Below are positions 15,345 to 63,686 of a DNA stretch of 64,000 nt, in pieces. The translations under genes were made by a program, and so were the position numbers. The DNA lies in assembly GCA_963845755.1 (NCBI GenBank), contig CAWJTV010000034.1, forward strand, positions 64,001 through 128,000. Direction: 5' to 3'. Each line of letters begins with the position of its first letter. Within the stretch, counting starts at the first letter, position 1. The notes beneath the pieces were generated by a model. It had not been told where the DNA came from, searched no databases, and worked only from the letters and a program-made list of their open reading frames with translations. This DNA is from an uncultured Planctomycetota bacterium (GTDB lineage Bacteria; Planctomycetota; Planctomycetia; Isosphaerales; Isosphaeraceae).

Positions 15345-19054
<3,710 letters not shown>

Positions 19055-47118: not shown

Positions 47119-48324
47119 TCAGGACGACCGCGTACGACGGGCGAGGAGGGCCTCGACCAGGAGATCGTTGGCGTTTTGCCAGCGGTAGTGTCCGGCGATC
47201 GCCCGGCCCAGCATGGCCCGACGCGTCCGTTCGGAGGAGTCGTCGAGCAAGCGGCGCAGACTATCGGCGATCGCGTCCTCGGAATAGGGGTTGAAATACC
47301 AGGCCGCCTCGCCGCCGATCTCGGGCAGGGCAGTCGAGTCGGCCAGCGCGATGGGGAGTCCTTGTGACATCGCCTCGACGGCGGGGATTCCGAAGCTCTC
47401 GCAGAGCGAGGGGAAGACCAGGGCCGTGGCCTCGGCATAGACGGCACGCAGAGCTCGGCCCTGACGGTAGCCCGGCATGCGAATGAGGGCGCGTCGCCCC
47501 GCCGCGACCGCCGCGTCGCGCAACGGGCGAGCCGCCTCCTCGGCGCCGGCACCGATGAGCACCAACGCCAGATCGCCGGCTGCGACTTCGGGCAGCCGGG
47601 CGGCGGCATTGATCAGACGCACCAGGTTCTTCCGCGGCTGGAAGTTCGCCACGGATAGCAGATACGGGACCTTCGGAGGCAGACCCAGGTCCTCGCGGAC
47701 CCGTTCCCGGTCGTGGTTCGGAGCCGGCTCGAAAAACAGGTCGTCGGCCGCGTTGGGCACGTATGCCACACGACCTCGGCAGGCCGGGAACGCGTCGAGC
47801 AGTTGCTCGGTGTTGAATCGGGAGACGGAGAGGATCAGATCGGCCGGTTCGAGGACGCGGGCCAGCAGGTCCCGTCTTCGCGGCGACTCGAAGCGCAGGG
47901 TCTGCAATACGTCGTGGCTGGTCACCGCCCGCCGAGCCGTTCGGGTAGGGACCAGGAACTCGGCCGGGCAGTACAGCCAGTCGATCGGGCCGGTCCACCA
48001 CTCGATCGGCGGCCAGGGCTTGATCCGCCACCAACGCAGGAGGTCGCGGGTGCGCAAGGGCAGCTCGCGCCGCGAGGCCAGATCGAGCGACTCCCAGTAG
48101 GCCAGGCCATCAGGATGCTTCATCCGTCCAGTCAGCAGGCGGAACGCGATTCCCGGCCGGCGTGCCAGTCGTTCGAGCTGTGCCAGGGCATGTCGGGTGA
48201 CGCCAGTCGGTGTGCGACAGGCGTCCATGTCGTACAGCAAGGCGACCCGCAAGTCCGGCATCGCCGGCGCGGAGGTCGCCGTGTCGATCGTCCTGAGCCC
48301 GAGCTGCGCATCTCCTGTCACCAT
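47119..48324 (-). CDS. Glycosyltransferase family 4
   Basis: PRKNL, FPSLCESFGIPAVEAM, LPEIGG. Confidence 0.9.
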   Translation of the reverse strand: MVTGDAQLGLRTIDTATSAPAMPDLRVALLYDMDACRTPTGVTRHALAQLERLARRPGIAFRLLTGRMKHPDGLAYWESLDLASRRELPLRTRDLLRWWRIKPWPPIEWWTGPIDWLYCPAEFLVPTRTARRAVTSHDVLQTLRFESPRRRDLLARVLEPADLILSVSRFNTEQLLDAFPACRGRVAYVPNAADDLFFEPAPNHDRERVREDLGLPPKVPYLLSVANFQPRKNLVRLINAAARLPEVAAGDLALVLIGAGAEEAARPLRDAAVAAGRRALIRMPGYRQGRALRAVYAEATALVFPSLCESFGIPAVEAMSQGLPIALADSTALPEIGGEAAWYFNPYSEDAIADSLRRLLDDSSERTRRAMLGRAIAGHYRWQNANDLLVEALLARRTRSS

Positions 48325-54556: not shown

Positions 54557-55682
54557 TCACGGAGAGAGACCGCGGATCTCCGCTTCCTCCCAAGCGACGT
54601 ACTTCTCAGGATCCTTCCAGAACTTAACCCACGCGGAGTTCAGGAGCGAATGAACTTCGTCGGATGTGCCCGGCTCCGCCAGCCGACAGTTGACCGCGGA
54701 CGTGCCTTCCCGTGCGAGACGTACGATGCCGTCGATCAGATGGTCCGGGTAGCAGCGGTGATACTCCGGTTCCGGTTTTTGCGCCAGTTTCCGCGAGGAG
54801 CTCACACCACTTCACGGAGATCGCCGACGCTTCGACGCCGAAGCCGCCAAGTTTCAGGGCGCTCAGCATCGCCCTCATGCGGGCATCATCGGCGGGGTGA
54901 GAGGCCGCTCGGAACACCGGCACTTCGAATGGATCGTCGCCCCGCTTCGCTGTCAGGTGTAGATGAGACCAAGCGTATGCCGGCCCAAGGGTGTTCACGG
55001 CGAAGAGGTCGCAGAAGAACTCCTCGGTCCAGATCTTCACCCACGACTCGCGCCACTTCCTGAGCATGAACGCCGGTCGCTCGGGGCCGCGTCTTCGAGC
55101 TTCCTTCGCGACCTCCCCTGCGATGTAGGACAGCGCCTCCGACATCGCGTTGAAGACCGCCTCTTGATAAGGCTCGACGATCGGATCGTCTTCCTGCTGA
55201 GCGAGAGGATGGCCGAGCTCATGATAGAGGTCGGGGAGGTGGAGGAGGAATCTACCCTCCGTGAGCGGAACGAAGAGAAGGTTGAGCTCGGTGTTGACGC
55301 AGAAGTACTGCTGCGAGAGTGATGAGACGACGGGAGCGGCGAGCGGATACTGGATCTCTCGTCGGATCTTCTCGAGCAGTTGGGTGAGATGGTGATCGTC
55401 CCCCGCTGCACGACTCAGCGCGGCGATGCCGGTGCTTTCCAGGATGTCCAGGTCCGAGACGATCCGGCGGAAGGCCCTGAACCGCTCCGGCTGATTCGCG
55501 GGATCGAGGTAGTCCGCATCTTCAAGCAGAGAGCGGAGCTGATGCAGGTGGTCCTGGATCTTCCTGTGGCAGGTTTGAGAGAGCGCGTCGTAGTCCCTCG
55601 GCAGGCGCCGCGGGATCTTCGCGACGAGATGCCTCGCACGGGCGATGAGTTGGTGGGTTAACCCGGTCAGATAGTCGTTCAC
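54557..55682 (-). CDS. HEXXH zinc-metallopeptidase-like protein, about 375 aa (frameshift at T-run near 54780)
   Basis: LYHELGH (55209-55229), then WTEEFFCDLFAVNTLGPAY and SHP; GTG start overlaps the upstream stop (GTGA). Confidence 0.75.
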
Positions 55683-56044
55683 ACCCCGCGTCCCCTCATC
55701 TTGCTGAGGAGATCCGACCTCTCATGTTCGATCGCGAGTGCGATGTTCTCGAGGCGCTCGACGAGCGTCGGCTCCACGTCCCGAGAAAGCAGAGCATCGC
55801 CGAGCGCGGACAACTCTCGGGGGTTACCCGCTTCGTCTGCGTGGACGAGGACGGCGAACACCTGCGATGCAAGGCTCTTAGCGTCGCCTCTTCCCGCCGC
55901 GATCAGAAGGTCGGCGAGCCGTTTTCTCCTGGGGTCAGAGGGCACACTCTTCCCGACCTTCAAACGCAAGATCACCTCGTCGAGAAGCTCGCCGTACTCA
56001 CGCACCCGGGAGTAGAGCCCGGAATACAGCCCGGAATGGCTCAT
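55679..56044 (-). CDS. Hypothetical 121-aa helical protein coupled to the Argonaute gene
   Basis: ATGA overlap with the pAgo stop and GTGA overlap with the next gene. Confidence 0.75.
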   Translation of the reverse strand: MSHSGLYSGLYSRVREYGELLDEVILRLKVGKSVPSDPRRKRLADLLIAAGRGDAKSLASQVFAVLVHADEAGNPRELSALGDALLSRDVEPTLVERLENIALAIEHERSDLLSKMRGRGV

Positions 56045-58404
56045 GAGTGGACCTCCTCTGACTCTTCAAAATCGAGAGCGTCAGCGTCGTACTCGCTTGC
56101 GTCCTCGCCGAGCCGGCGATCGGTTAGCTTGAGGGTGATCGGATACCGAGTGCAGTCCTCCGGCCTCGTCCAGGCGAGAGCGGTGAGGTCATAGAGGTCC
56201 TCGAGGGGAGCTCTCGAAGTCCAGACTCCCCTCGACGTACCGGAGGTGGAGCGGCTGCACCGTCCCGTTCCGGCTGAACGCTCGCCCGGTGGCACAGAGG
56301 TATGCATCGTCTCCGCCGGCAAAGTGGTAGCACCCAACCTGAGGGTTGGTCACGAAATCGCGGTGGCCGTTCGAGGTGGAGACGTCGAAGAGCCTGAGAC
56401 TCGTGCGCGATGTCTTCCAGATCTCGAGCATCGTGATCGTGGCGTCCGGCTCGATCGTGCCGTCTTTCTCCAGCTCCGCGAACGCCCGCTTGAGCCCTTC
56501 GCGTTCGGATGACCAGAGGCGCCCATCTCGGTGGATGACGATGTGCCGAATCGGAGTGCCGGTTGCCGCCTCCTCCTTGATGATCTCCGCGAAGTACTTC
56601 TTCACCTGATCGGCGAGGAGACGTTCCTTCTGCCGAGACTCGTGGCACCGAGTCCGGACAAGGCTTCCGTTGCCGGCCACGACGGTGAAACCTGCGGTGT
56701 TCTGCTTGACGTCTATTCCGACCGTGACGTCGGCGTGGAGCGGCGTCGAGAGTACGAACGGCCACTTCTCGTTCGTGAGAAGGATCTTGTTCAGCGCGAC
56801 GTTCCGGAGGTAGCCGGAGAACTTGCCACGCTTGTCGTTCCGGACTCGGTTGAACGGCCTTCCGTCTCTGCCGTGCGCGAGCTCGTAGCATTCGCGGCCC
56901 ATCGCCGAGTGATTGACGGCGGCGTACACGTCGAGCTTCCTCAATTCTCTTACGACCATCGCGGCGAGTTGATCGTGCTGCCGATGCCGACGATCGCTCG
57001 TGTGATGGATCATGACGAGCGCGAAGCCGTCTTTTTTGCAGTGCTCCTCGGCAGCCGCACGAATTGCATTCCCTTGGTCGACGAATGTCTTCGGACCACG
57101 GTCGTTGTACGGCACCACGATCGGGTCGTACCCGCCGCCCTGCGGATAGAGTTCGTCTACGACCCGCTTGAGATCCGTAAGGAACTCACCGCCCCAGCTA
57201 TCCGCGACGCTCTGCGGGAGGAAGAGGTATTGCCTGTCCAGCCTGTCGCGCGAGTAGAAGCCCGCGCCCAAGTCGCGGAGGAGCTCGGCCCGGGTCCGTC
57301 CGATCATGTCGAGCGAGGCTTGCTGCGCCCGGGCGTTCCGCGGATCGAGACGATCCGATCGTTCCCGAACTCGTAGTCGGGGAGGACGAACATCTTGTGA
57401 GGGACGCTGACCGGGACCGGAGATACATCCAGCACGAACTCGCCGAATCTGAGCCGGCGGAGGAACTGTGCGGCGTAGCGATGGATCCCTTCGCGACGCT
57501 CGTGCGGCCTGAGGATCGTTCCGCCGTGATGCCGACCTGCTTCCTCGAACTTCGTGTCGATCACCGGATAGCAGAGCCCAGCCGGCGCACCCCTCAGTTC
57601 GCCCTGATTGCTCATGTAGGAGACGACGGATGCGTTGTTCGGGAGGTTTGCAAGCTCCTCGGGGACCGGCTTCTCGGTCTCGGCGAGAATGTAATCGAGG
57701 AGCGTAACGCGCGTACCGTTACGTTGGATGAGAATCTCGCTCGCGGTCAGGTCGTTGAATTCGTGGAGGTGGACGACGTACCACCGATGGCCGTAGCGGT
57801 AGACGCAACGGCTTCCGCGCCATCGCCTAAAAGCCGCCCGGTCCATGTGGAGCGGGAGCGGCTGGCGACTCGCAAGCCTGTGCTTGACGTTAACGCAGAG
57901 CCCGATTCCCCCGTCTGGCGTGACGATCGCTCGGACGGAAAAGCCCGGGTAGCGGACGACATTCCCGGAGAGGATCGTCGGGGTCTTCTCGAAAAACGGC
58001 TCTCCGGAGCCAGGCTGCCACAGAGTCGAGTTGGAGTTGAGCGGCGTCTGGACGGTGAAGTTCACAAACCGGAGGCAGATCTCGTCGTTCTCCGGATTCC
58101 GCTCGGTATAGTCGAGCGTCCTCACTCCGGGGACGCGATCGAAGTACACTGTCCGCCGCACGAGTTGATACGGACTCGGCGGCTCTGGTGCGTCGTCGCG
58201 CAGCACGAGGTACGGTTCGCCTTCGCGCTCGACAACCGTCGCTGGCGTGTGAGTCGCGTAGCTCATCCTCCGGGCGATGATCTGGCGGTTCTGGTGGTAC
58301 TCCGACTGCTCCGAGTGGAGGCCTCGAATTCGGTACAGGCGGTAGCTCGAGGAGAGCTGGGCGATGTTCGTGATCGGGAAGACGTTTGTCTCGAGCTTGC
58401 TCAT
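56041..58404 (-). CDS. Long prokaryotic Argonaute, about 787 aa (frameshifts near 57330 and 56205)
   Basis: N-terminal LETNVFPI; PIWI motifs VGIDVK, IVIHRDGR, NPQVG, GTVQPL, DLYDLTALAW, YPITLKLTD. Confidence 0.9.
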
Positions 58405-59335
58405 ACATCGTCCTCCCAGCACATCACGCGATAGGAGCAGCGCTGGCACGCTTCTGGCGAGGCCGCGACCGGAAAATCGCATGGTCGGAGATCCGTGCTC
58501 TTTCGCCCGTCGAGGACAAGGAGCATGTCCGTCGCGGTCGCGGCGATGTGGGCGTCGATATCCGCGGCGTCATCCTCTGCGAGGGCGTAGGATCGCGTTC
58601 GTCCCAGCAGCAGTTGTACCTCGAGCAGGCGGACGTCCAAGGGTTGCCAGCGTGACATCGACTCCGGGAAGTCCTTGTGGGCGTTGCATCGACATAGCGC
58701 GAGCGCATATGTGGCGAGCTGAAGCCTCGCCTCCTGAACGCCGAACGCGTGCACCTTCCAGTCAACGATGAGAGGTGGTGCATTCTCGTAGAACGCGATG
58801 AGGTCGGGAACGGCTCGCACGGTCATCCCGGAGTGCTTGAACATCAGGGCGGCGTTGCGCGACCAGGTAGCTCGCTGCTTTCAGCTCCGCGGCGAGCTCT
58901 CTCATCTGAAAGAGGTTCTTCAGCGCGAGCTCGACCTCGGTCCAGGCGACGTTGATTTCCTCCTCATTGAGGGTCCCTTCGTAGGCCAACGAGTAGAAGG
59001 CGACGAAATCATCTCCCTCCTTGGTGGGGATGAGATCGAGATCGTCGAGGCGCTGCGTGCGGCCGTACGCGAGCTGCCCGTCAAAGAGCTCCCGCGCCCT
59101 CTTGACGGCCAACTGGAGCGTCACGGTCCTGCGCTCGCAACTGCGGGACGATGAATGAGCTGATGACGTCGTTAACGATGTTTCCACGCCACGAACTTAG
59201 GCTCTGGAGCTTGCCGAGCAGATATGCCCGCCGGCGCTCGCGGTCGTTCGCCCTGTGACTCGCGAGGACGTTCTTGAAGTACCACTGACGCTGGCATCTC
59301 CTAAACGTCTTGCTCTCCGAGATCGACCAATACAT
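58401..59335 (-). CDS. Cas4/AddB-like PD-(D/E)XK nuclease with Fe-S cysteines, about 310 aa (frameshifts near 59130 and 58850)
   Basis: N-terminal S...FRRCQRQWYF, VPDLI, IVDWK, QLATYA, C-terminal CQRCSYRVMC. Confidence 0.85.
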
Positions 59336-59694
59336 CAGCGCTTCCTCCCCGCATGCTTCGAGCGGAGGAAGGCGAGATAGTCCGCGAGGGCATCCTCCTC
59401 CTCTTTGGTCGTGGGGCCGAGGCGGGCCGAGAGCCGCGAAGCTGATTCACGTCGCTTGGTCGGCCCGGGTACAGGATATCCCGCGTACTCGAACAGGGTC
59501 TCGTACGGGACCTCATAGAGCTCGCTCAGCTTGTGGAGGTGCGCCGGGGAGGGCTCGCGGATCTTCCCGGTTTCAAGCTGGCTGAGATACGCGTTTGAGA
59601 TCCCGGTCTCAGCCTCGACGGCGCGTAGGGACAGGCCCTTCGAGCGGCGTAGCACGGCGAGGAATGAGCCAAGGCGATTGGGTTCGGTTGACAT
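59335..59694 (-). CDS. Xre/Cro-family HTH transcriptional regulator
   Basis: LRRSKGLSLRAVEAETGISNAYLSQLETGKIREPS; the stop overlaps the nuclease start (TGATG). Confidence 0.92.
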   Translation of the reverse strand: MSTEPNRLGSFLAVLRRSKGLSLRAVEAETGISNAYLSQLETGKIREPSPAHLHKLSELYEVPYETLFEYAGYPVPGPTKRRESASRLSARLGPTTKEEEDALADYLAFLRSKHAGRKR

Positions 59695-59700
59695 GATGCT

Positions 59701-59729
59701 AAGTTTGCCAAGCACGCTCCGGATGTCAA
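59701..59729 (-). promoter_or_regulatory. Putative promoter for the Xre-nuclease-pAgo operon
   Basis: Perfect TTGACA, then 16 nt, then CAAACT about 7 nt before the ATG; no SD, possibly leaderless. The -10 match is weak. Confidence 0.45.
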
Positions 59730-59877
59730 GCACTCGCTCCGCGGATGGTTCCTCGCCTGCGGAGATTTCTCGCGGTTCGCGTGGACGACGAACGTCACAC
59801 GCGGCCTGGTATGCGAGGCGCACAAACTCCCTGTCGCCGAAGCGGCAGCTCTCGGGGTGCTTGCATTGCTCCGCCGA

Positions 59878-60096: not shown

Positions 60097-60461
60097 CGGC
60101 GTATCTCCTTTCAGTTGAAGAGCTTGCGGATCACGTTTTCCCAGACGAGCAATCGCTCGAGCACCTCAGAACGAAGGTTCGCGCCGGCGAGGTCGGAAGG
60201 CGATCCGGGCTCCTCTAACCAGTTAGTATCGGCAAGAGGCGTCACGGAGTCAATGGACAAAGTCCCAATCGGCTCGCTCCCGGGTTGCTTTTCCGCCTCA
60301 GGATGATCCCAGATTGGCACGCTGAGCATCGACTTGCGGTGATCTGGGACGCGGCGGTGCTGCTCCGCGGTCATCCTCCATGGCGTTGGGTTGACCGCAG
60401 CGGCGCTCGAGGTCGTGCAAGCAGGCCGCCTTGCGCTCCACGCCCGTCCGCTGCATCCGGC

Positions 60462-62042
60462 CAGTGAGTTCAGGGTTTTCCTCTGGCTCTAGGGGGCCCC
60501 GTCTTTTGCTCATGTGCTTGCTGGAGAACCCGGTAGGTTGACGTATGGTTGCCGAGCACACGCTTCTTGACTTTCTGATGACCGCCACGGCCGGAGCTGG
60601 GCGCTTTCCACCAACGGTCGCTCCAGGCGCGCGCAACCGCTCCCGCAAGTACGTGCGCACCTCACTCGCCGTCGGCACGGCGCCCAGCAACGACAGCAAC
60701 GTCTTGACCTCAACCAACTCGCTGACCGACACCATTTGCCGCTCCACGTCACCGAAGAGCTTCTCGTTGGAGATCGCCTTGGCCTCACACTCTTGATGCG
60801 ATGCCAGGTGCGTCCGCACGACTTGCAGGGCGTTGTACAGCAGCAGGCAGAACGACAACTGGAACAGGACCGCCTTCGGCTGCGTGCCGATGAGGTGCTT
60901 CAGCGAGAACACGTCGGTGATCTGCTGGAAGACCGTCTCCAGACCCCAGCGACTCTGATACGTCGAGAGCATCGCCACGGCGGGATACGTCGTCTCGTCC
61001 AACAGGTCGGTGATCACGCCGAACTCCTTGCCGTCGGCCAGATGCTTGGTGATCCGGCGCACGTACACGCGGTCGGCCTTGGCGACCTTGCCCAGCCAGC
61101 CCCACTCCTGCACGATCCGGCGCCCGTCGGCGTCGCGGGTCTCCTGCGCCGGCCGGGACGCATCGGGAACGAACGTCGTATTGCTGCAGTAGCGGATCAG
61201 GAAATGGCCGCCGGCCTTCAACACCTCCCGGGGAAAACTCAGGTTGCAGTAGAGTCGGTCCAGGACCACCAACCACAACTTCTCCGGCCGGCCAGCGCCG
61301 CCAACTTCGGCAGCAGGCCCTCGGTGAGAGCCGCTTCACCGGCTTCGCCGTCGAGGTGGCCCACCATCGCGACGGCCAGGCCCGTCCGCAGGTCCAAGCC
61401 CACCGACGCCCGCGCACCGAGGATCCCCGCCTGCAAGCCGCGCAACGGCTTGAGGAGCCGGCGAACGTGCTTGATCGCCTTGCCGTCGGCCCCGAAGACT
61501 TCGAACCCGGCCCAACACGCCGGCAACGGCTCCACGGCCAGGGTCTCAGGCAGGACCGCGTTGAGCCGCTGGGTGCCTTCGGCGAGCAGGGCCTCGCTGA
61601 GGGGCAGGGGCAGGTTCCCCAACTTGTCATAGGACGAGGTGATCGAGACCGGCAGCGTGCCCTGTTCCTGGGCCCGCGTGAAGGCCTGGTAGCCACTCCC
61701 CTCGTGCTCGATCAAGGCATCGGTGATCAGATGGGCCAGCGTGCGGAACTTCAACTGCTTCTCGAAGCAGGGCCCGCGATTTCGCGCCCAGAGATCATCC
61801 AGCCACGAATCCGCCATCGCGTAGTGCAGCAACCGCCACACCGAGTCGGCCAGAGGAAGCCGACTCAGCACCTCGGCGGCAAACGGGGTGTCGTTGAGGA
61901 CCGAAGGACTCCGGACGGCTGCGGAAAAGACGGCGACCTCCATAACCGAAGGACTCCTGAGAGGACCGAAGGTGCAATCCGATGGGTATTTATGATACGG
62001 ACCTCGGATCCGCGGTGGAACGCCAAGACCCTGAACTCACTG
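60462..62042 (-). mobile_element. IS4-family insertion sequence (1581 bp)
   Basis: TIRs cagtgagttcagggtttt and aagaccctgaactcactg (17/18); 12-bp TSD gctgcatccggc at 60450-60461 and 62043-62054. Confidence 0.92.
60470..61943 (-). CDS. IS4-family DDE transposase (frameshifts near 61280 and 60630)
   Basis: ADGK, VLDRLY, YQSRWGLETVFQQI (YREK-like motif). Confidence 0.88.
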
Positions 62043-63686
62043 GCTGCATCCGGCGGTCTCGGCGATCTCGAGCGTGTGGTCGGAATCCATCTCATTCGTC
62101 GCCGGGTCGAACATTCCGAACGAGTAGGTGACTATCCTCGTCGGCGTACCGTCGTCGAAGGTCCGACCGGTCCGTAGCATGATGTGTGTCCGGACGTCCT
62201 CTGCGTCGGTGCTTGATTCGATATCCTGTGCCACGGCGAATAAGACGGCTTCGAAGAGCTTGGGGTCACCGTAGCGTGCTTGCAATTGACGCTGGATGAC
62301 CCCCTCCCGGATCTCGGTCTGGCCGAGGCCGTGCACTCCGAGTTGGTGGACGAAGTCCTCGGCCTGGTTATGGCGTTGAAGGATCTCGAGGTTGTCGAGG
62401 AACTCGCTCGACTGGTGGTAGCCGAGATTGAAGAGCTTGCGCCGACCATCGAGGCCGATCTTGAAGTCGAGGACGTCGAACTTGTTCGGGATGCGAATGG
62501 GGACGTGGATCACGTCCTTCAGGACCTTGCGGAGGAGCTCATCCCCAGCGTCGAGCGCGGTTGACACCATGTCCTTGAGAAACCGCTTGAGGTCGTAGTT
62601 GGTCGCGGCTTCGGGGGAGGCCTCTGAAGTCAGGTCGAACGCGAATACCGGGTGTCTTGTCCGCTGCTGCTCGTCGTGAAAGAGGAATGCGGGGAGGTTG
62701 CTCGCCAAGCCTCCGTCAACGAGCCAGCACTGGCGGTTCCGGTCTACCGGCTGAAACACGAACGGGTAGCAGGTGGACGCACGAACGGCGTCCAGCACCG
62801 AGCTGCCGTAGAGCGTCTCGTCCTTCGAGAACACGACCGGTTGACGACGAGAGACATCCGACGCGACGATCTTCAGGGGGAAGCAGCGGCGACCATTGCT
62901 CCGGACAGCCTCGAAGGCAGCTAGGCTCGCGAAACTGATGTCGCTCGCTTCATCGAGTGACGGGAGCTTGGCAGCGATCTTCTTCAGGAGGAAGACCTTG
63001 AGCACCTGACCATCATCAACTCCGAACCGTTCCATGAGCGTCTGCTTCAGAGTCCCGTAGCCGAGGTACGCGCCGAGTGCCCGCGCGACCGAGCCCAGCT
63101 TGCCGAATAGGCCCTTCTCTAGGCCCCCAACGACGGCGCCAATCTGGGACTTGAACGCTTCGACGTGTTTGCCGTTGTCGTTGAGGAGGCTCGTGAACTC
63201 TGTACCTACGAGGATGTCCTCGATCTCTTGTCCGCTGTAGCCCACCGCGGCGAGCGTCGCGATGACGCTCCCCGCAGACGTGCCGCCGAAGCCCACGAAC
63301 TCGACTCGCTTCCGCTCTGCAGCCTTGAGGGCTCCGGCGAGCGCCGCTCCGAGGACACCACCACCGTCGAAAATCGCATAGGCTTTCATCAGTTCGGTAT
63401 TCCTGCTCTTTCGCTTCGTGGCGCCCTTCGAGGTTGACAGTTCAGTACCCATCGGTCGCGAAGACGTGCTCGACGTACAGGTCGTGTTGACGCTCCAGCA
63501 GGCGGAGACAAATGGACATCTCCTCGATCCAGACGAGTTGACGAGCAGCCGGTCGTACCGTTCGGGGAGCGACGACACCGTGTAGCATGATCGGCAATGC
63601 GGAGACTCCCTCGTGCAGACGCTCCGGAAAAGGTTCCGAAAGAGGTAGTGGAGACCTTTTCCTCGCGGGGGGCATGATGTGATTTG

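Follow-up and report, generated by a model that had tools for sequence, protein, structure and literature searches.

Two related groups of prokaryotic Argonautes (pAgos) that take DNA guides and cleave RNA, the 'D-R' pAgos, were defined by Lisitskaya et al. (2022, Nat Commun, PMC9360449). According to the text of that paper, PliAgo and RslAgo use DNA guides of 14-20 nucleotides (nt) and cleave complementary RNA in vitro, the cut is shifted to 9'/10' in DNA-guided RNA cleavage, the biochemistry is known just for these two proteins, and the natural function of D-R pAgos is called open. The same text reports an operon with a Cas4-like nuclease, accompanied by a putative helix-turn-helix (HTH) regulator in the first group and by sigma-70 in the second. 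A pAgo and a Cas4-family nuclease are also paired in APACE1, where ACE1 is described to be an endonuclease acting on single-stranded DNA, which processes the guides and pairs with the pAgo as a heterodimer (Mol Cell 2025, PMC12094033); the longer ACE2 class in the text of that work, 313 amino acids (aa) on average and distinguished by an insertion, is uncharacterised. Here we analysed a 64,000-nt stretch of DNA (the window) from an uncultured planctomycete of the family Isosphaeraceae, which carries overlapping genes for an Xre-family HTH regulator, a Cas4-family nuclease, a long pAgo, a 121-aa helical protein (p121) and a protein with an HExxH motif (the HExxH protein).

The five genes occupy positions 54557-59694 on the minus strand (Table 1). 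Direct reading of the sequence confirmed the original prediction that they are coupled through four overlaps: TGATG joins the Xre stop and the nuclease start (59333-59337), ATGA joins the nuclease stop and the pAgo start (58401-58404) and also the pAgo stop and the p121 start (56041-56044), and GTGA joins the p121 stop and the start of the HExxH gene (55679-55682). The GTG start of the HExxH protein yields MNDYL, agreeing with its homologues, and the ATG at 59694 yields an Xre protein of 119 aa, the homologues being 112-123 aa long. Overlapping junctions were common in related loci (Xre/nuclease in 51 of 71, nuclease/pAgo in 73 of 82, pAgo/p121 in 88 of 97 and p121/HExxH in 80 of 96), in counts that are approximate as to start codons, which were chosen by a script. 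Judged from gene order and junctions, the arrangement goes far beyond chance, and the translationally coupled five-gene Argonaute cassette that had been proposed is real and conserved.

Table 1. Position of the cassette genes and of the putative promoter in the window.
Feature	Position	Strand	Length	Remarks
Xre-family HTH regulator	59335..59694	minus	119 aa	PF01381 HTH_3, E 2.9e-12
Cas4-family PD-(D/E)XK nuclease	58401..59335	minus	~311 aa	frames 59335-59081, 59187-58762, 58844-58401
Long pAgo, PliAgo group	56041..58404	minus	~787 aa	frames 58404-57304, 57307-56189, 56337-56041
p121, helical protein	55679..56044	minus	121 aa	uninterrupted frame
HExxH / ExxxD zincin-like protein	54557..55682	minus	~375 aa	frames 55682-54624, 54805-54557
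Putative promoter with operator-like repeats	59695..59733	minus		immediately 5' of Xre

The PADLOC model pAgo_II (PDLC02382) matched the three pieces of the pAgo (E 3.5e-121, 1.5e-138 and 2.3e-19) over profile positions 2-779 of 782. With the MID-PIWI piece as query, 541 proteins were returned at E <= 1e-10, the best of them 71% identical, and among the 120 matches listed nearly all had lengths of 780-800 aa. A profile built from 30 homologues matched the PDB chains 7R8F-7R8K at E ~1e-211 (3.3e-211 for 7r8k), while the window's MID-PIWI piece alone matched 7r8f at 1.8e-67; the same piece was just 36% identical to RslAgo. Chains 7R8F-7R8K are PliAgo (PMC9360449), for which the text of the paper gives the catalytic tetrad D563, E592, D626 and D762 and two characteristic lysines, K565 beside the first Asp and K759 before the last. 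The window's GIDVK, SRQKE and HRDG align to the tetrad region of PliAgo, and KLTDRR lies in the last piece. The DEDD columns were invariant in the profile alignment (30 sequences), and the group-specific lysines were present, in GIDVK and KLTD of the window and as the invariant K558 and K750 of the alignment. By these sequence criteria the window pAgo is a D-R pAgo of the PliAgo group with an intact tetrad, and RNA cutting is known for its homologues. The long-B type of inactive pAgo with an effector (BPAN/BPAS/BPAM) was considered and rejected, the DEDD tetrad being intact. For the same reason only one half of the context first given to this gene could be kept: its placing among long pAgos with Cas4-family nucleases stood, and the comparison with SIR2 and membrane effectors, which belong with inactive pAgos, was dropped.

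The nuclease was matched in three pieces by the PADLOC model Aga_Cas4-like_Nuc (PDLC02406; E 8.4e-30, 7.2e-21 and 3.4e-54), which together follow profile positions 1-307 in order. In the nuclease alignment C14, D178, D192-W-K194, E239, C297, C300 and C306 were nearly invariant, and the window pieces have the matching motifs, that is, the D...DxK motif with one N-terminal and three C-terminal cysteines. Nuclease-pAgo fusions also occur (clusters P0079 and P0117, and a 1087-aa open reading frame (ORF) in locus L005). An active long-A pAgo beside a Cas4-family nuclease with D-DxK and 1+3 cysteines is likewise described in the text on APACE1; by that text, however, APACE1 differs in being a two-gene cyanobacterial system that targets DNA, with no peptidase-like gene reported (PMC12094033). 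Compared by length alone, the window nuclease resembles the ACE2 average (~311 against 313 aa).

Conservation of the cassette was followed from both of its ends. In a pAgo-centred search (one genome per species; tblastn with the window pieces) 34 loci were found in Planctomycetota, Chloroflexota, Acidobacteriota, Verrucomicrobiota, Cyanobacteria (Calothrix PCC 7103), Alphaproteobacteria and in Binatia-type and Latescibacterota metagenome-assembled genomes. Xre and the nuclease were present in 34 of 34 (the middle nuclease piece in 27) and the HExxH gene in 31 of 34, which is 31 of the 31 with enough DNA, since the contigs of the other three loci (L018, L036, L037) end at the pAgo. The window's p121 as query found its counterpart in 18 of the 34 loci and the p121 of L020, the closest homologue among the genome loci, detected p121-like ORFs in 27; most ORF maps had a slot of ~120 aa, or an in-frame fusion, between the pAgo and the HExxH gene. 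The HExxH-centred metagenome search was evaluated for the best 80 of 363 relatives, the closest ones. Among these, the pAgo lay directly upstream of the HExxH gene in every locus that offered over 600 bp of upstream DNA (70 of 70) and in every one that offered over 2.8 kb (49 of 49); the other genes found upstream were the nuclease (43 of 43), p121 (70 of 72) and Xre (37 of 41). The HExxH family is much larger (1703 representatives at E <= 1e-3); as read from these neighbourhoods, strict linkage to a pAgo is supported within the closest 80 of 363 relatives. In close pAgo homologues, the neighbourhood tables thus showed p121 and the HExxH gene to be constant companions, as the original prediction implied.

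Searching plasmids by tblastn with the HExxH protein gave five records. Plasmid pRUNSL03 of Runella slithyformis, typed as conjugative, encodes an HTH regulator, a PD-(D/E)XK nuclease, WP_013921749.1 and hypothetical proteins of 125 and 378 aa. In the text of the 2022 paper, WP_013921749.1 is the accession of RslAgo (PMC9360449). On this gene order, the characterised RslAgo sits in the same five-gene cassette. On plasmids of Emticicia and Spirosoma the order was sigma-70, a 180-aa protein, nuclease, pAgo (PDLC02383, 1.7e-215), a 128-132-aa protein and an HExxH homologue 25-27% identical to the query, which is the layout of the PnyAgo type. In the plasmid of an Aphanizomenonaceae member the four-gene core had no annotated regulator, and no HTH ORF was seen in a 300-bp gap, the plasmid gene tables being incomplete. 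Elsewhere the front gene was a JAB-ThiF protein or a 148-aa unknown protein. Since the core is preceded by Xre, by sigma-70, by another gene or by no annotated regulator, the regulator is exchangeable and the four-gene core is the unit: judged from the loci compared, the conserved unit is nuclease, pAgo, small protein and HExxH protein, with its order kept in at least eight phyla and in both D-R groups.

The sigma-70 operons of the PnyAgo type (L120:1991-3129 and L121:2009-3156) begin with a sigma-70 gene (region 4_2, 7.3e-10) that is followed by the overlapping gene of the 180-aa protein. This protein gave faint HTH matches at E ~0.1 and may be a partner of the sigma factor or an anti-sigma.

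The cassette is single-copy in the window's own genome, and the HExxH family was single-copy in each of five cassette-bearing genomes (5/5). The pAgo model PDLC02382 had no match in 400 other sampled genomes of the phylum. The scarcity of the pAgo in the phylum sample, the single copy and the adjoining transposase pieces of the IS4 family of insertion sequences fit horizontal transfer, and the best explanation of the cassette is a horizontally mobile, self-regulated operon of defence type.

How much of this system is already described can be stated gene by gene. Published accounts exist for the pAgo, the nuclease and the HTH regulator, and for the two downstream genes no description was found in the literature searched. 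The likeness to the PliAgo and RslAgo operons extends over the pAgo family, the tetrad, the lysines, the upstream Cas4-like nuclease and the HTH gene, and at RslAgo over the identical five-gene order; the difference is that the text of the 2022 paper, its figures and supplements aside, names the nuclease and the regulator only (PMC9360449). The statement that no characterised system of this kind was known therefore held in part: it failed for the nuclease, pAgo and HTH operon, published in 2022, and stood for p121 and the HExxH protein. PADLOC gave the same divided answer, a part match to a described system, with models for the pAgo and the nuclease and none that matched p121 or the HExxH protein. 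A literature search covering text, and thus neither Table S3 of Ryazansky 2018 nor the PMC9360449 figures and supplements, returned no account of a peptidase or small-protein partner of a pAgo, nor of the motifs of the two genes, the pAgo-p121 fusions, a p121-peptidase complex, the fusions to protease domains or the operator-like sites.

In the HExxH protein, residues H154, E155, H158, E221, D225, H262 and P263 (numbering of the L020 homologue) were invariant in 86 sequences, and the motifs HExxH, ExxxD and HPxDxARM were kept in homologues down to 25% identity. The window's copy reads LYHELGHPL, EEFFCDLFA and SHPADDARM. An HExxH motif with ExxxD on a downstream helix is the gluzincin signature, and E221 and D225 would be metal ligands. 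The AlphaFold2 (AF2) model of the L020 homologue (predicted local distance difference test score, pLDDT, 93.8; predicted template modelling score, pTM, 0.91) begins with a bundle of three helices (residues 1-92), followed by a sheet of three strands and by the helices that carry HExxH (151-162) and ExxxD (202-232). In a wide structural search with this model, hits to the N-terminal bundle crowded the list. In a second look within the Foldseek list, the catalytic region matched zinc peptidases only, namely neprilysin 6suk (Z 7.6, root mean square deviation 4.5, 177 residues aligned, model 91-324) and ZMPSTE24 2ypt_D (Z 8.0, root mean square deviation 7.6, 200 residues aligned). The protein shares with M13 neprilysin and with M48 ZMPSTE24-HtpX an HExxH helix after a small sheet and the Glu/Asp pair (ExxxD) on a later helix; it differs from them in being soluble, in its three-helix N-terminal bundle and its own HPxDxARM motif, and in lacking a sequence-family match (identity 11-16%). 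By its motifs the HExxH protein is zincin-like, and it lies outside any named peptidase family. The best peptidase-family hits were below cut-off: two of 25 members matched M50 (0.022) and one of 25 matched M78 (0.16). In the ESM Atlas the protein fell into clusters of hypothetical proteins with 53, 217 and 120 members. A profile-against-PDB match of the N-terminal helices to SYCE2 (3.6e-4) was rejected as being of the composition or coiled-coil type.

Some members of the family are fused to further protease-type domains. P0123 (609 aa) has a C-terminal caspase-like CHAT domain (4.3e-09, above cut-off) and P0140 a weaker CHAT match (2.4e-4, below cut-off), both with the His and Cys motifs. P0148 and an ORF in a pAgo cassette (L017:12726-14861) have a second, C-terminal HExxH domain of ~335 aa. 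Lit (Peptidase_U49) is a phage-exclusion protease and, like the window's protein, a defence-associated HExxH protein; the latter has no Pfam match, and the ESM Atlas scores that bring it near U49 clusters are at lead level. A search for Peptidase_U49 sequences gave one hit in 401 genomes. Remote relatives of the HExxH protein were seen in cyanobacteria (L130:7428-8711, L131:7240-8592 and L132:7602-8885; E ~1e-8, 427-450 aa), with HExxH followed by ExxxD ~44 residues on and no pAgo nearby. They lie in same-strand clusters whose genes, barring one for a collagen-repeat protein, matched nothing in Pfam or PADLOC, and these neighbours offered no clue to function.

Searches of Pfam, NCBIfam and PADLOC gave no family for p121. 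Its AF2 model is a five-helix bundle (pLDDT 85.4) for which Foldseek found no match in the PDB at E <= 0.001; the CheA P1 domain (best Z 7.9 in the wide search) appeared among generic helical bundles and was set aside as uninformative. The sequence is weakly conserved apart from the N-terminus, MSxxGLYSGLY, and a C-terminal helix, LExLAxxLExER. Protein clusters P0097, P0110 and P0118 (918-919 aa), as well as loci L010 and L025, have p121 fused in frame to the C-terminus of the pAgo, and a script counted the two as fused in 7 of 97 loci. From these fusions, which occur in some lineages, we infer that p121 is a pAgo-associated adaptor. The text of the 2022 paper states that both PliAgo termini tolerate modification (PMC9360449), which fits a C-terminal p121 fusion.

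When the HExxH protein and the p121 of L020 were co-folded (alignments of 86 and 78 rows respectively, zinc included), the interaction prediction score from aligned errors (ipSAE) was 0.78, 0.78 and 0.77, while the best of three controls scored 0.00. In calibration 116 of 157 solved complexes and 2 of 215 mismatched pairs attained this ipSAE mark. The runs agreed in at least 86% of contacts, with partner pLDDT of at least 74. In the predicted interface, p121 residues 2-13 lie against residues 128-132 and 137 (the sheet), E155, H158, 220-221 and 261-262 of the HExxH protein, and the p121 helices pack on helix 57-83 of its bundle. The model supports binding of p121 to the HExxH protein. It would place the conserved N-terminal segment of p121 at the catalytic residues as either a plug or a substrate. 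Tissue inhibitors of metalloproteinases (TIMPs) inhibit metalloproteases by insertion of their N-terminus, and the modelled position of the p121 N-terminus resembles theirs by analogy.

The Xre protein comprises the HTH domain, an AGYPxP hinge, a variable linker, a conserved C-terminal helix (EEExALxxYLxFLRS) and a basic tail. It matched the PADLOC models HTH_VI (2.9e-10) and capH (5.4e-07), and its homologues are 46-67% identical to the window's copy across phyla (alignment of 26 sequences). A scan with promoter and terminator consensus sequences gave counts equal to the shuffle expectation, and the promoter was found by comparing loci instead. Within 120 nt 5' of Xre, 55 of 57 loci have GCTTGAC, a motif whose background frequency is 0.015 per 150 nt. 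The consensus of the region is TGCTTGACA, a few bases, (T)AGCA and then a second GCTTGATA-type copy, with a TAnAnT-like -10 ~17 nt after the TTGACA -35; in several loci the first site is a perfect palindrome, TGCTTGA-N4-TCAAGCA. In the window the TTGACA -35 hexamer lies inside the TGCTTGACA motif, a second GCTTGG copy lies 18 nt downstream, the -10 is weak and the direct repeat is at 59706-59715 and 59724-59733. Xre may repress its own promoter by way of two sites of the TGCTTGA type, which overlap the -35 and the -10. The start codon lies 6-8 nt past the -10 in about two thirds of the loci (~6 nt in the window) and the remainder have a short leader with GGAGG; a start codon so close to the -10 implies a leaderless mRNA, and the sequence suggests that the Xre transcript is of this kind. 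The conserved promoter with its operator-like repeats makes a compact, apparently portable regulatory unit.

On balance we think it probable, and the best explanation, that the locus is a D-R cassette of the PliAgo type, with repression by Xre, a nuclease that makes guides, a pAgo that cuts RNA and a latent zincin-like peptidase tethered by p121. Xre would keep expression of the operon low, and the nuclease would make or trim the DNA guides, by analogy with ACE1 in APACE1. The pAgo would cut complementary RNA, as is in print for PliAgo and RslAgo, and p121 might tie the latent peptidase to the pAgo, as the fusions and the predicted complex suggest. In the most speculative step, recognition of the target RNA would alter the complex and the peptidase would act on a cellular, an invader or a regulatory protein. 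We offer more tentatively, as possible but rather unlikely, the idea that the D-R pAgo is a sensor with two outputs, in which the pAgo would hold a latent zinc peptidase by means of p121, and recognition of invader RNA, directed by the guide DNA, would release or activate it to cleave a protein of the host, of the invader or of regulation. The original prediction had proposed that guided sensing of nucleic acids is linked to proteolysis, in abortive infection or in regulator cleavage. The link itself is a live hypothesis and is now better grounded; a main role in cleaving Xre is disfavoured, since p121 and the HExxH protein are kept where Xre is replaced or absent.

Several points weigh against the tethered-peptidase reading. 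The HExxH protein matched nothing in Pfam, NCBIfam or PADLOC at curated thresholds, its model had no Foldseek match in the PDB at E <= 0.001, and its profile found nothing relevant among PDB sequences. The structural scores quoted above (Z 7.6-8.0) are in the range where, as the tool warns, helical proteins may share a common arrangement. The nearest named ESM Atlas clusters carry Peptidase_U49 (PF10463) in 20-38% of members, M48 being named as well, at a score of 0.78, and the second HExxH domain of P0148 and L017 resembles clusters of the ImmA/IrrE or U49 type at 0.91-0.93; both are leads only. As to the complex, the ipSAE calibration was made without a riding ligand or custom alignments, both of which the co-fold used, and the two L020 proteins folded are 58% and 48% identical to those of the window. 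A plug with a free amine cannot be general, because the N-terminus of p121 is not free in the fused forms. Finally, the link of the pAgo to p121 and to the HExxH protein comes from fusions in a minority of loci and from gene order.

Three other readings of the downstream genes have to be weighed against the tethered peptidase. ImmR/ImmA and CapH/CapP are repressor-metalloprotease pairs, and like the window they combine an Xre-type repressor and an HExxH protein in one operon of a defence system or mobile element. The HExxH protein could be such an anti-repressor protease, cleaving Xre (or, in the other group, a partner of the sigma factor) and thereby turning the operon on, with p121 as inhibitor or sensor. 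The Xre match to capH and the variable linker between the HTH and the conserved C-terminal helix would suit this role, as would the two kinds of transcription factor attached to one core; the tightly kept promoter with operator-like repeats implies repression that needs relief, and the extra domain in L017 and P0148 is, as a lead, ImmA/IrrE- or U49-like by its features. We nevertheless find this role improbable, since the window pair lacks M78 membership (the weak match in one of 25 members) and the HExxH gene, instead of adjoining Xre, is three genes away, with the nuclease, the pAgo and p121 between. Moreover, p121 and the HExxH gene persist beside sigma-70 and the 180-aa protein, beside a JAB-ThiF gene or where no regulator is annotated, and the fusion partner of p121 is the pAgo and not a regulator.

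A small protein beside an enzyme, in a tight predicted complex with the p121 N-terminus at the catalytic residues, also recalls a toxin-antitoxin-like or addiction pair, which would stabilise the cassette on plasmids outside the Argonaute function, and cassettes do occur on conjugative plasmids and beside transposases. That account is very unlikely: the pair was never apart from the pAgo in the 70 informative loci (70/70, among the best 80 of 363), five of five genomes had a single copy, the fixed order and the translational coupling persist across two pAgo groups at 25% identity, and p121 is fused in frame to the pAgo. The remaining alternative is that the HExxH protein is no peptidase and acts with p121 as a structural or loading factor for the pAgo, its metal site being structural or serving another hydrolytic reaction. 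No peptidase family was matched, the protein is mostly helical, and its long N-terminal bundle makes the best-defined contacts with p121; in addition, the text of the 2022 paper has PliAgo and RslAgo active in vitro without p121 or the HExxH protein (PMC9360449). We regard it as doubtful, about as much so as the anti-repressor role, in view of the invariant HExxH with a downstream ExxxD, the restriction of catalytic-region structural matches to zinc peptidases and the family's fusions to other protease-type domains.

Craspase consists of the type III-E gRAMP (Cas7-11) and the protease Csx29, of the CHAT family, with Csx30/31 and RpoE. The cassette would resemble it in working only, as a guide-directed RNA nuclease with a protease and small partners, with a sigma factor in one subgroup and some HExxH members fused to CHAT; there is no homology between the sensors, and the core protease of the window is zincin-like and not caspase-like. 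If target recognition does control the peptidase, the cassette would add a further route from nucleic-acid sensing to proteolysis, beside the CRISPR-associated and the cyclic-nucleotide-triggered proteases. It would then be the Argonaute counterpart of Craspase and the first protease-coupled Argonaute. D-R Argonautes have so far been studied as single purified proteins and tools, and their natural setting is a fixed four-gene core; their use as tools would then have ignored half of the machine.

Whether the window's copy is intact is a separate question. The cassette has five frameshifts in 5.1 kb, two in the nuclease gene, two in the pAgo gene and one in the HExxH gene, placed by tblastn with the intact L020 homologues at ~59110-59135, 58850, 57328, 56210 and 54772-54783. 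The source assembly (14.27 Mb in 49 contigs, 87.9% completeness) breaks other genes as well. In the same window rpoB (~15366-19015, contig coordinates 79366-83015) consists of two open frames that meet near 17187, and elsewhere in the genome rpoC has two frame changes, dnaE is in 2 pieces, the uvrA copies are in 2-3 pieces and secA is in pieces; over these five indispensable genes we counted ~12 breaks in ~28 kb, ~0.4 per kb. Because essential genes are split similarly, the five cassette frameshifts are probably assembly indels and not decay. Real frameshifts in a decaying pseudogene cluster would account for a rate somewhat above that of the essential genes, for the adjoining IS4 transposase pieces and for a -10 weaker than in most relatives. 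We see a slim chance of this, given the low completeness and the breaks in essential genes, the position of three of the five breaks at homopolymer runs of 3-5 bases (G3, C4 and A5, the last near 54778 in the HExxH gene) and a cassette that showed neither in-frame stops nor deletions and keeps all its catalytic motifs. Broken genes in this indel-rich assembly should not be called pseudogenes without the reads.

By tblastn, 19 of 120 loci have a JAB-ThiF (E1-like) gene adjoining the pAgo cassette, and there is none in the window. Examples are L020:6868-8505, L029:7193-8665, L030:7426-8853, L084:1338-2879, L059:1696-3240 and L064:93-1622, with L119:8450-10629 and L121:1-1617 in addition; in L059 and L064 the gene stands in place of Xre. 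On the Runella and Spirosoma plasmids the neighbours are multiubiquitin-domain and ThiF proteins. These neighbours could reflect a defence-island neighbourhood or a real link.

In the window itself, pieces of an IS4-family DDE transposase in several frames lie directly upstream of the cassette on the minus strand (60298-61943; NF033592 6.2e-21, PF01609 2.9e-09). The G+C content is ~0.60-0.63 over 51.5-60.5 kb and 0.64-0.68 in the flanks. A patatin-like phospholipase of 513 aa (62037-63578, minus strand; PF01734 3.9e-25) gave weak matches, below cut-off, to models of anti-phage phospholipases and of lipases from cyclic oligonucleotide-based antiphage signalling systems (CBASS), and may be a further defence gene of the same island. 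A group-1 glycosyltransferase (47119-48324, minus strand), which sits with housekeeping genes ~6 kb downstream of the cassette, also matched PF20706, 'GT4 in conflict systems', at 1.4e-09.

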